Positions 3,762-4,425 of a DNA stretch of 13,077 bases are shown here, one piece after another. A program made the translations under genes and the position numbers. Numbering within the stretch: the stretch's first letter is position 1; the number at the start of each line of letters is the position of its first letter. Origin of the DNA: a virus (lineage: Duplodnaviria; Heunggongvirae; Uroviricota; Caudoviricetes); the IMG/VR virus record IMGVR_UViG_2671180603_000001. One strand, written 5' to 3'. Below the pieces are notes generated by a model. It ran no database searches. It was not told the origin of the DNA and saw only the letters and a program-made list of their open reading frames with translations.

Positions 3762-3790
3762 TTGAATGCATATAACAATTTTGTTATGTT
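3762..3790 (+). promoter_or_regulatory. candidate promoter and palindromic operator of the toxin-antitoxin operon
   Basis: TTGAAT (3762-3767), 17-nt spacer, TATGTT (3785-3790). The perfect 16-bp palindrome ATAACAATTTTGTTAT (3772-3787) overlaps the spacer and -10, the usual position of an autoregulatory operator. The predicted start lies at or next to the toxin ATG, so the mRNA may be leaderless. Confidence 0.4.
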
Positions 3791-3797
3791 GATACCT

Positions 3798-4127
3798 ATG
3801 AACTACACTATCGAATACTACAGTGAAGATGTAAGGCTGGAAGTCGATCGGCTTCCATTGAGTATGCGTGCCCGATACCAACATCTCGTTGAACGTATGA
3901 AGATATATGGCAGCAATCTCGGAGAACCTCACACCAGCGCCTTTGGTGACGGACTTTTCGAACTCAGAATTAAAGGCAACGATGGGATCGCGCGTGTTTT
4001 TTACTGCACTCTGACAGGGAAACGCATCATCATGCTGCATAGTTTTGTAAAGAAAACGCAGAAAACACCGCCAGCCGAACGCAAGAAAGCTGAAACCAGA
4101 ATGAAGGAGGTTAAGCATGACTGGTAA
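3798..4127 (+). CDS. type II toxin, RelE/ParE superfamily, Gp49/HigB-like
   Basis: 109 aa from the ATG at 3798 (the ORF track offers in-frame ATGs at 3663 and 3786 too). Matches the Gp49-like toxin pattern (N-terminal IEYY...V, GDGLFELR, ARVFYC, HSF-KKTQKTP). Start is uncertain; stop overlaps the antitoxin start. Confidence 0.75.
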   Translation: MNYTIEYYSEDVRLEVDRLPLSMRARYQHLVERMKIYGSNLGEPHTSAFGDGLFELRIKGNDGIARVFYCTLTGKRIIMLHSFVKKTQKTPPAERKKAETRMKEVKHDW

Positions 4128-4425
4128 ACGCACTCTCCCCACCATGACACACGACGAAATGGCAGCCAAATGGATGGAAGACCCGGCTTTTAAAGCAGAA
4201 TACGACGCTATCGCTGACGAATTCGCACTGCTTGATGAAATGCTGGCAGCACGCAAAGAAGCTGGCTTAACTCAGGCTGAAGTTGCCGAGCGAATGGGAA
4301 CAAAAGCGACCGCGATCACCAGAATGGAAAGTAATCTCGCATCAGGTATCAGCGGCCCATCATTTGCCACCCTAAAAAAATTCGCCCGCGCTACTGGAAA
4401 AAAACTCCAGATCCGCTTCGTTTAA
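4117..4425 (+). CDS. HTH (XRE/HigA-like) antitoxin
   Basis: 102-aa ORF with an HTH segment (LTQAEVAERMGTKATAITRME). Strong AAGGAGG Shine-Dalgarno at 4104-4110, 6 nt before the ATG. Follows the toxin with an 11-nt overlap, the toxin-first order typical of HigBA modules. Confidence 0.75.
   Translation: MTGKRTLPTMTHDEMAAKWMEDPAFKAEYDAIADEFALLDEMLAARKEAGLTQAEVAERMGTKATAITRMESNLASGISGPSFATLKKFARATGKKLQIRFV

Follow-up and report, generated by a model that had tools for sequence, protein, structure and literature searches.

Among the closest described systems is the gp49-gp48 operon of the temperate coliphage N15, a pair of the Tad-Ata type whose toxin is the namesake of the Pfam family Gp49. As in the locus described here, the N15 toxin gene precedes the antitoxin gene, and the products of both loci belong to the same Pfam families; N15 gp49 is 46% identical to our toxin (E 2e-26, tblastn/blastp) and gp48 is 38% identical to our antitoxin. 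A stabilising toxin-antitoxin (TA) function has been reported for N15 gp49-gp48 (Dziewit et al. 2007, cited in PMC2701414 and PMC5906591). N15 gp49 differs from our toxin in its shorter N-terminus and in its canonical Shine-Dalgarno (SD) sequence, GGAGG, located 8 nt before the ATG. Furthermore, N15 is a linear plasmid-prophage, for which a stabilising role is obvious, whereas the prophage studied here is lambdoid and of the integrating type.

The best solved-structure match for both toxin and antitoxin is HigBA of S. pneumoniae (6AF3/6AF4). HigB of this pair has the ELR...R...HxFxK(K/R)TQKTP motifs and a long C-terminal helix in common with our toxin (TM 0.74-0.78), although sequence identity is only ~20% and the S. 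pneumoniae pair occupies a Gram-positive chromosomal locus. The HigB1 toxin of the M. tuberculosis TAC system (7AWK, 7NBU; PMC9098466) also has a Gp49-like fold (TM 0.78), and its cleavage of mRNA at the ribosomal A site offers a mechanistic model for our toxin. The third gene of TAC encodes a SecB-like chaperone, whereas in our locus the antitoxin gene is followed by a hairpin and then by ninE on the opposite strand. Examination of the open reading frames (ORFs) in the window and their Pfam matches revealed no SecB-like gene after the antitoxin stop at 4425 and no third plus-strand ORF in the module, so this is not a TAC system. HigBAC systems confer phage immunity (bioRxiv 10.1101/2024.02.24.581848) and so set a precedent for a defensive use of HigB-type toxins.

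HigB-HigA of P. vulgaris Rts1 and of E. coli K-12 likewise has the toxin gene first and an HTH antitoxin, and its inverted-repeat operators overlap the promoter (PMC12266136). The P. vulgaris and K-12 HigB toxins differ from ours in belonging to Pfam PF05015/PF09907, and P. vulgaris HigB is only a weak Foldseek match (E 0.04-0.1). For the PF05973 family, to which Gp49 belongs, a toxin/antitoxin gene order has been given (PMC5906591, PMC11980606). In the literature searched we found nothing specific on the present cassette in Stx or lambdoid phages, on POCJ13 or on a leaderless HigB, and neither the operator sequence nor the combination of a leaderless toxin with an operator serving as extended -10 element was found there.

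Gene map and identification of the pair

The window, i.e., the entire 13,077-nt stretch of DNA that was analysed, carries the immunity and early-right genes of a lambdoid prophage together with two tRNAs (Table 1). The early operon is encoded by the minus strand, which places the TA pair in the nin region, antisense to the nin genes. The earlier note had described a two-gene module opposite to the nin genes, and this arrangement was confirmed: the two ORFs are on the plus strand and every flanking gene, including those for NinE, NinB, Ant, RusA, NinH and Q, is on the minus strand.

Table 1. Coordinates of the TA cassette, its regulatory elements and the neighbouring genes in the window
Feature	Position	Strand	Details
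RusA, NinH, Q	533-1156 (Q)	-	
Antirepressor/Rha-type genes	between 1697 and 3479	-	n = 3
Ant antirepressor	2793-3479	-	ORF6N + P22_AR_C (Pfam)
C4 antisense RNA	3616-3532	-	Rfam 75.2 bits (gathering 45)
isrK intrinsic terminator	3670-3649	-	U7 follows; terminator scan; isrK 3' end
isrK	3716-3643	-	Rfam 72.1 bits (gathering 50)
c4-a1b1	3729-3677	-	Rfam 50.1 bits (gathering 46.7)
Divergent promoter, IsrK/C4-ant transcript	3752-3723	-	TTGACG-18-TATATT; promoter scan
TA promoter, -35	3762-3767	+	TTGAAT; conserved TTG
Inverted repeat, putative operator	3772-3787	.	ATAACAA-tt-TTGTTAT; 7-nt arms; core TAACA / TGTTA
TA promoter, extended -10	3782-3790	+	TG-t-TATGTT; TG supplied by right operator half-site
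Toxin, Gp49/HigB-type, RelE superfamily	3798-4127	+	109 aa; Pfam, PHROG, PGAP, AF2, Foldseek
Antitoxin Shine-Dalgarno	4104-4110	+	AAGGAGG; within toxin 3' end; 6 nt before ATG 4117
Antitoxin	4117-4425	+	102 aa; N-terminal region + C-terminal Xre-type HTH (residues ~44-98)
G+C-rich hairpin at cassette end	4433-4453	+	9-bp stem; -16.6 kcal/mol; z -2.7
NinE	4467-4670	-	
NinB	4640-5086	-	
Toprim primase-helicase	6050-8956	-	LAGLIDADG/Hint intein
HTH_36 replication initiator	9184-9915	-	
CII	10078-10377	-	
Cro-like	10516-10761	-	
cI-type repressor	10822-11559	+	HTH + S24 peptidase

The product of the first ORF matches Pfam Gp49 (PF05973) with 90.5 bits (cutoff 23.9; E 7.4e-26) over profile positions 3-90 of 90, and PF05973 was the only family reported; neither of the canonical HigB families, PF05015 and PF09907, matched it at E <= 0.01. 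Judged from these profiles, the first ORF encodes a Gp49-type toxin of the RelE superfamily, for which 'HigB' is a loose label. The product of the second ORF, which overlaps the first by 11 nt, matches Pfam HTH_3 (43.5 bits, cutoff 23; E 3.4e-11), with S. pneumoniae HigA (6AF3_B) as its best PDB match (E 1e-3). The antitoxin helices were assigned from the HTH_3 and 6AF3_B alignments, the single-sequence AF2 model (pLDDT 58) being too poor for this use. A homolog of the antitoxin lies downstream of the toxin in 79 of 80 related loci, and the antitoxin pN/pS is 0.02-0.15. Together with the PDB profile matches, the RelE-like fold and the resemblance to N15 gp49/gp48, these results bear out the proposed pairing of a Gp49/HigB-type toxin with an HTH antitoxin. 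NCBIfam gave nothing above cutoff for the module. PADLOC assigned it to none of the defence systems it lists; the output was limited to weak HTH matches and a partial match between the toxin and the last 50 residues of NsnC.

Four lines of evidence support the toxin start at 3798: the alignment to PHROG 2523 covers the full length (residues 1-109), the same start was chosen by PGAP in strain VL40, the great majority of homologs are 109-111 aa long, with invariant M1, Y3 and Y8, and pN/pS is 0.03-0.18 across residues 1-109. Conservation of the N-terminal residues, which the structural model folds into a beta-strand, means that the start cannot lie downstream of 3798. An in-frame extension reaching up to an ATG at 3663 was rejected; it has no Pfam match and would overlap the promoter, and among homologs N-terminal extensions show no conservation. 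An antisense ORF at 3753-4256 (167 aa, TTG start) was likewise considered as a gene and rejected.

The two proteins of VL40 are identical to those of the window, and RefSeq labels them a RelE/ParE-family toxin and an HTH protein. As the type II TA nature of these proteins is thus already on record in RefSeq, the identification is ordinary: the locus is a genuine Gp49/HTH type II TA moron, of a common kind that annotation pipelines already recognise. Prophages often carry type II TA pairs as morons, and bare identification adds little.

An accessory cassette and its flanks

A moron is an independent transcription unit that has been added between two genes which are direct neighbours in related phages (PMC3594210). 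Phage Min27 matches the window at 3600-3738 and at 4470-4520 with ~23 nt between the two matches, and therefore represents the empty site. BLAST also revealed that Min27 and many Stx phages without the TA pair share 3483-3738, and that 4470-4520 follows in them after ~23 nt. The segment 3735-4453 recurs at 92% in two Shigella phages, POCJ13 and 75/02 Stx, where its surroundings differ, and the cassette occupies other early-region positions in POCJ13, in E. coli KY176, TUM9812, A34 and G1/2 and in Salmonella prophages, always antisense to its neighbours. The empty Min27 site and the varied positions in other prophages show acquisition, and on this comparison of loci the TA pair is an accessory cassette, or moron. 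The earlier note had reached the same status by way of bounding hairpins; the status stands, but on the empty and alternative sites, and the hairpins do not serve as its mark.

Among 5426 complete E. coli genomes the cassette occurs in 31, in all of them on the chromosome, and it adjoins the IsrK/C4 region in 16 of the 31. In Castellaniella it is chromosomal as well and adjoins a BrnTA pair. In a PhiR5_2-like E. coli lineage the toxin start codon has been lost (ATA); the toxin of this lineage has 72-73% identity and a pN/pS of 0.3, the antitoxin ~91% identity. This suggests that the toxin can decay, and that it is dispensable in some hosts.

Hairpins had been noted on both sides of the module, and only the right one belongs to it. 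The right hairpin is kept in all E. coli and Shigella cassettes, with one compensatory change (C-G to T-A) in strain A34. It has no U tract, being followed by ACC in the window and by TTT or TT in other contexts. Lacking this tract, it falls short of an intrinsic terminator, and 4433-4453 was left uncalled by the terminator scan. It is possible that it acts as a weak terminator or as an RNA 3' stabiliser.

The left hairpins (3698-3715 and 3649-3670) are real; however, they belong to the isrK and c4-a1b1 RNAs on the minus strand, as parts of their structure and as terminator, and consequently mark no boundary of the TA module. The divergent promoter would start transcription at 3716, the seventh base past its -10 hexamer, which is the first base of the isrK model, and the order on the minus strand is promoter, a1b1/isrK, C4 and ant (3479-2793). 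Going by the Rfam matches and this order, the left flank is an antisense-RNA control region of an antirepressor, of the type known from P1 immI and Gifsy IsrK. The TA and IsrK/C4 promoters stand back-to-back, with their -35 hexamers 9 bp apart. The local map is thereby corrected to include, at its left, an IsrK/C4 antirepressor control region of relevance to Stx-type prophage induction. A possible tRNA-like remnant at 3680-3700 (GGTTCCAATCCC) was rejected; ARAGORN found no tRNA, and the stretch corresponds to the second stem-loop of the isrK/a1b1 models.

Promoter and predicted leaderless start of the toxin

The module had been credited with promoter-like elements of its own, and these were upheld by comparison of related loci; the -35 hexamer begins at 3762, the first base of the region that the earlier note had delimited. 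The two hexamers are separated by a 17-nt spacer, and the -10 element is followed after 7 nt, without an SD sequence, by the toxin ATG. The promoter matches the consensus at 8 of 12 positions, and because of this low score it was missed by the generic promoter and terminator scan. We nevertheless take it as real since it is conserved in 80 related loci, which encode relatives that are 58-89% identical and come from Gamma- and Betaproteobacteria, Nitrospirae and others.

The upstream alignment of these 80 loci was anchored on the right half-site of the palindrome, and the anchor included the TG and the TA of the extended -10 element, so that their 100% conservation arises by construction. This does not apply to the features outside the anchor, namely the -35 element, the left arm of the palindrome, the last T of the hexamer and the constant spacing between the -10 and the start codon. 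The consensus consists of TTG, a 17-nt spacer containing TAACA-N4-TGTTA, the extended -10 TGnTAttaT, a short gap and ATG or GTG. The TTG, 17 nt upstream of the -10, is present in 71-82% of the loci as compared with ~25% in flanking columns, and it is kept in TUM9812 and A34 despite unrelated sequence further upstream. The sixth base of the -10 hexamer is T in 97%. The distance from the -10 to the start codon is 6 nt in 52 of the 80 loci and 7 nt, as in the window, in 16, and in no locus of the 80 is the toxin start preceded by an SD-like motif. From this conserved promoter-to-start geometry without an SD, the toxin mRNA is predicted to be leaderless, with transcription starting at A3798 or 1 nt before it.

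An alternative is that the same TA pair is transcribed from further upstream or from a neighbouring promoter, and that its mRNA is not leaderless; the TAttaT element with its AT-rich surroundings would then enhance translation independently of an SD, and the palindrome would serve as a roadblock operator or fold into a hairpin in the RNA. The weak, uncalled promoter would fit this explanation, and the palindrome could in principle fold as RNA. In addition, the toxin start is GTG, which works poorly as a leaderless start in E. coli, in 30 of the 80 relatives. All enteric members have ATG. Against it, a spacing of exactly 17 nt between TTG and the TAnnnT hexamer is conserved amid random flanking columns, the hexamer-to-start distance is 6-7 nt in 68 of 80 loci, and the -10 has the TG of the extended type. 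Beyond the -35, the upstream sequences of the different contexts bear no relation to one another, so they have no upstream promoter in common. On balance we consider a mRNA with a leader unlikely and retain the leaderless start as the preferred reading.

A putative operator within the promoter

The palindrome over the promoter (3772-3787; ATAACAAT followed by TTTGTTAT) had been described as a perfect 16-bp repeat. In the window it has 7-nt arms and two unpaired central bases, i.e., 7 of 8 pairs or 14 of 16 positions; the perfect form, ATAACAAATTTGTTAT, exists in the relatives POCJ13, KY176, PhiR5_2 and G1/2. The palindrome was detected by a repeat search with a minimum length of 6. A repeat with 7-nt arms is by itself within chance for 1 kb, others having appeared in the same search; its significance comes from conservation across loci. 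The left half-site TAACA, inside the promoter spacer, is present in 94-99% of the 80 loci, and the right half-site doubles as the TG of the extended -10. Conservation of the left arm, at a position where promoters require no set sequence, points to an operator.

Comparison of half-sites with the recognition helix of the antitoxin revealed covariation. Half-sites TAACA/TGTTA are paired with the helix GT[KQHR]A[PT]A[VI][AT]R, TACCA/TGGTA (loci L022 and L071) with GSTAPAVSR, and TAGCA/TGCTA (L037) with GVSAPVVSR. Symmetric half-site changes accompanied by helix changes were thus found in three loci, amounting to ~2 independent events, and owing to this number the covariation is supportive evidence for an operator rather than conclusive. 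From the conservation in 80 loci and this covariation, the dyad is very probably the operator of the antitoxin, as the earlier note had proposed. The TAACA, TACCA and TAGCA half-sites with their helix-3 variants provide a candidate protein-DNA specificity code that can be swapped experimentally.

Fold, catalytic pocket and activity of the toxin

The AF2 model of the toxin (pLDDT 90.7, pTM 0.84) contains a strand at residues 4-7, helices at 10-17 and 21-37, four strands within 46-84 and a helix at 92-108, which together form a RelE-type sheet of four antiparallel strands, N-terminal helices and a long, positively charged C-terminal helix, the latter being a Gp49-like trait (PMC9098466). The best Foldseek matches are 6AF4/6AF3 and 7AWK/7NBU (TM 0.71-0.78), followed by YafQ, RelE and YoeB. 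A profile built from 30 toxin homologs and compared with the PDB matched HigB 6AF3_A (E 1.7e-8) and HigB1 7NBU_Y/7AWK_A (E 3e-3).

The catalytic pocket proposed for HigB of TAC comprises E66, R68, R77, F93, K95, Q98, K99, K58 and N73 (PMC9098466). By alignment, seven of these nine residues are kept in our toxin, where E66, R68, R77, F93, K95, Q98 and K99 correspond to E55, R57, R66, F83, K85, Q88 and K89; all of the seven except Q88 are invariant among the 30 homologs. The equivalents of K58 and N73 are, by the same alignment, the unconserved S47 and D62.

The two missing pocket residues lead to the question as to whether the toxin is active. M. tuberculosis HigB2 and HigB3, which belong to the Gp49 family and are without several pocket residues, are non-toxic (PMC9098466). 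If our toxin were similarly weak or non-toxic, the pair would be a selfish, decaying or transcription-factor pair with no addiction or defence phenotype. Such an explanation could draw on the unconserved K58 and N73 equivalents, on the lost start codon and relaxed toxin of the PhiR5_2 lineage, and on the small share of complete E. coli genomes that carry the cassette. However, the core E/R/R/F/K/K is invariant in the 30 homologs, most lineages show strong purifying selection on the toxin (pN/pS 0.03-0.18) and the positively charged C-terminal helix is kept, so that we regard a weak toxin as quite unlikely. It is highly improbable that the toxin is a ParE-like gyrase poison instead of an mRNA endonuclease: the RefSeq name says just 'RelE/ParE family' and the Foldseek matches to ParE2 and ParDE are weak (E >= 0.02), whereas every one of the best matches in sequence and fold (HigB, HigB1, YafQ, RelE, YoeB) is an RNase that depends on the ribosome, RNase active-site residues are conserved, and PF05973 is listed as mRNA-degrading and ribosome-dependent (PMC11980606).

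Proposed working of the cassette

It is likely, in our judgement, that the locus is a self-contained type II TA cassette, carried as a moron in the lambdoid early-right region and consisting of promoter, operator, toxin, antitoxin and 3' hairpin. By homology to S. pneumoniae HigB and M. tuberculosis HigB1, the toxin would be a ribosome-dependent mRNA endonuclease; the antitoxin would bind and neutralise it and, through its HTH domain, would repress the operon at the TAACA-N4-TGTTA dyad in the promoter spacer and extended -10. The conserved geometry suggests that translation of the toxin, from an mRNA without a leader, is presumably poor, and that the strong internal SD of the antitoxin yields an antitoxin excess despite the toxin-first order. 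Judging from orientation, the lysogen would express the cassette from the TA promoter, while during lytic growth the PR-driven early transcription would cross it antisense. As to its role, prophage addiction or stabilisation, abortive infection against other phages, or both, are a guess, and a purely selfish element is an equal possibility.

The regulatory side is of moderate interest, with a predicted leaderless toxin start set against a strong antitoxin SD, which could keep the toxin below the antitoxin. The promoter/operator architecture is kept from Enterobacteriaceae to Nitrospirae and is absent from N15 gp49, whose normal SD indicates that the leaderless design is specific to the clade of 109-aa toxins. 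We lean, with some reserve, towards the idea that this 109-aa Gp49/HTH clade is a compact mobile unit that combines a leaderless toxin with an operator doubling as the extended -10. If true, the leaderless toxin and the dual-use operator would set a low toxin:antitoxin ratio without a second promoter.

The centre of the putative operator is ~63 bp upstream of the transcription start of the IsrK/C4-antirepressor transcript, and roughly half of the E. coli genomes with the cassette have the two units back-to-back. Speculatively, antitoxin occupancy of the operator could couple the state of the TA pair to antirepressor expression and prophage induction.

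Sequences flanking the toxin-antitoxin cassette

The cassette is flanked by a 7-nt direct repeat (see table), which could represent either recombination microhomology or a target duplication. Phage Min27, in which the corresponding site is empty, carries only one CCGAATA, followed by AAAT, and this resembles the right-hand copy in the window. The cassettes of POCJ13 and KY176, located at other positions, also include the IsrK promoter's -35 region (GATATGTGTTGTCGTCAAC), with no adjoining IsrK in either. To the left of the cassette, the antisense-RNA control unit is complete, and consists of a promoter, a1b1/isrK with its own terminator, the C4 antisense RNA and an ORF6N/P22_AR_C antirepressor. 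This unit is common to many Stx1/Stx2 phages (Min27, 933W-type), at ~93% identity; their records over it carry no annotation, or "hypothetical protein".

Coordinates of features in the window
Feature	Position	Strand	Remark
P1-immI/Gifsy-IsrK-like unit	3532-3752; ant, 2793-3479	-	
7-nt direct repeat CCGGATA	3732-3738; 4455-4461		Either side of cassette
tRNA-Thr(TGT), tRNA-Asn(GTT)	117-272	-	Downstream of Q
86-aa ORF	2464-2724	-	Phage_pRha model match, positions 1-27 only
Toprim primase/AAA_25 helicase, 968 aa	6050-8956	-	
Two genes 3' of cI	11597-11938; 12128-12661	+	

Cassette variants in related genomes

In phage PhiR5_2 (L003, 3318-3320) and in the related E. coli genomes H29-H37, the toxin gene has ATA in place of a start codon. 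Toxins of this lineage share 72-73% identity with that of the window (pN/pS 0.3), and the antitoxins ~91%; judged from sequence, the toxin appears to be decaying while the antitoxin is kept. The E. coli JNEC-KY176 locus (L008) contains an additional "HigA family addiction module antitoxin" gene (3209-3540), inserted after the antitoxin stop codon and followed by a second copy of the hairpin that ends the cassette.

Other genes in the window

Of the two genes downstream of cI, one encodes a DUF3024 protein and the other a product of 177 aa without a match in a Pfam search. In lambda, the equivalent position is occupied by rexAB, and the two genes may be further accessory genes expressed in the lysogen. 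The primase-helicase is split by an intein (GKAC...VATHNT), with Pfam matches to Hom_end_hint (379-424) and LAGLIDADG_3 (579-634). The counterpart of the 86-aa ORF in strain VL40, which encodes identical toxin-antitoxin proteins, is annotated as a truncated Rha pseudogene. Stx-type phages likewise carry tRNA genes past Q.
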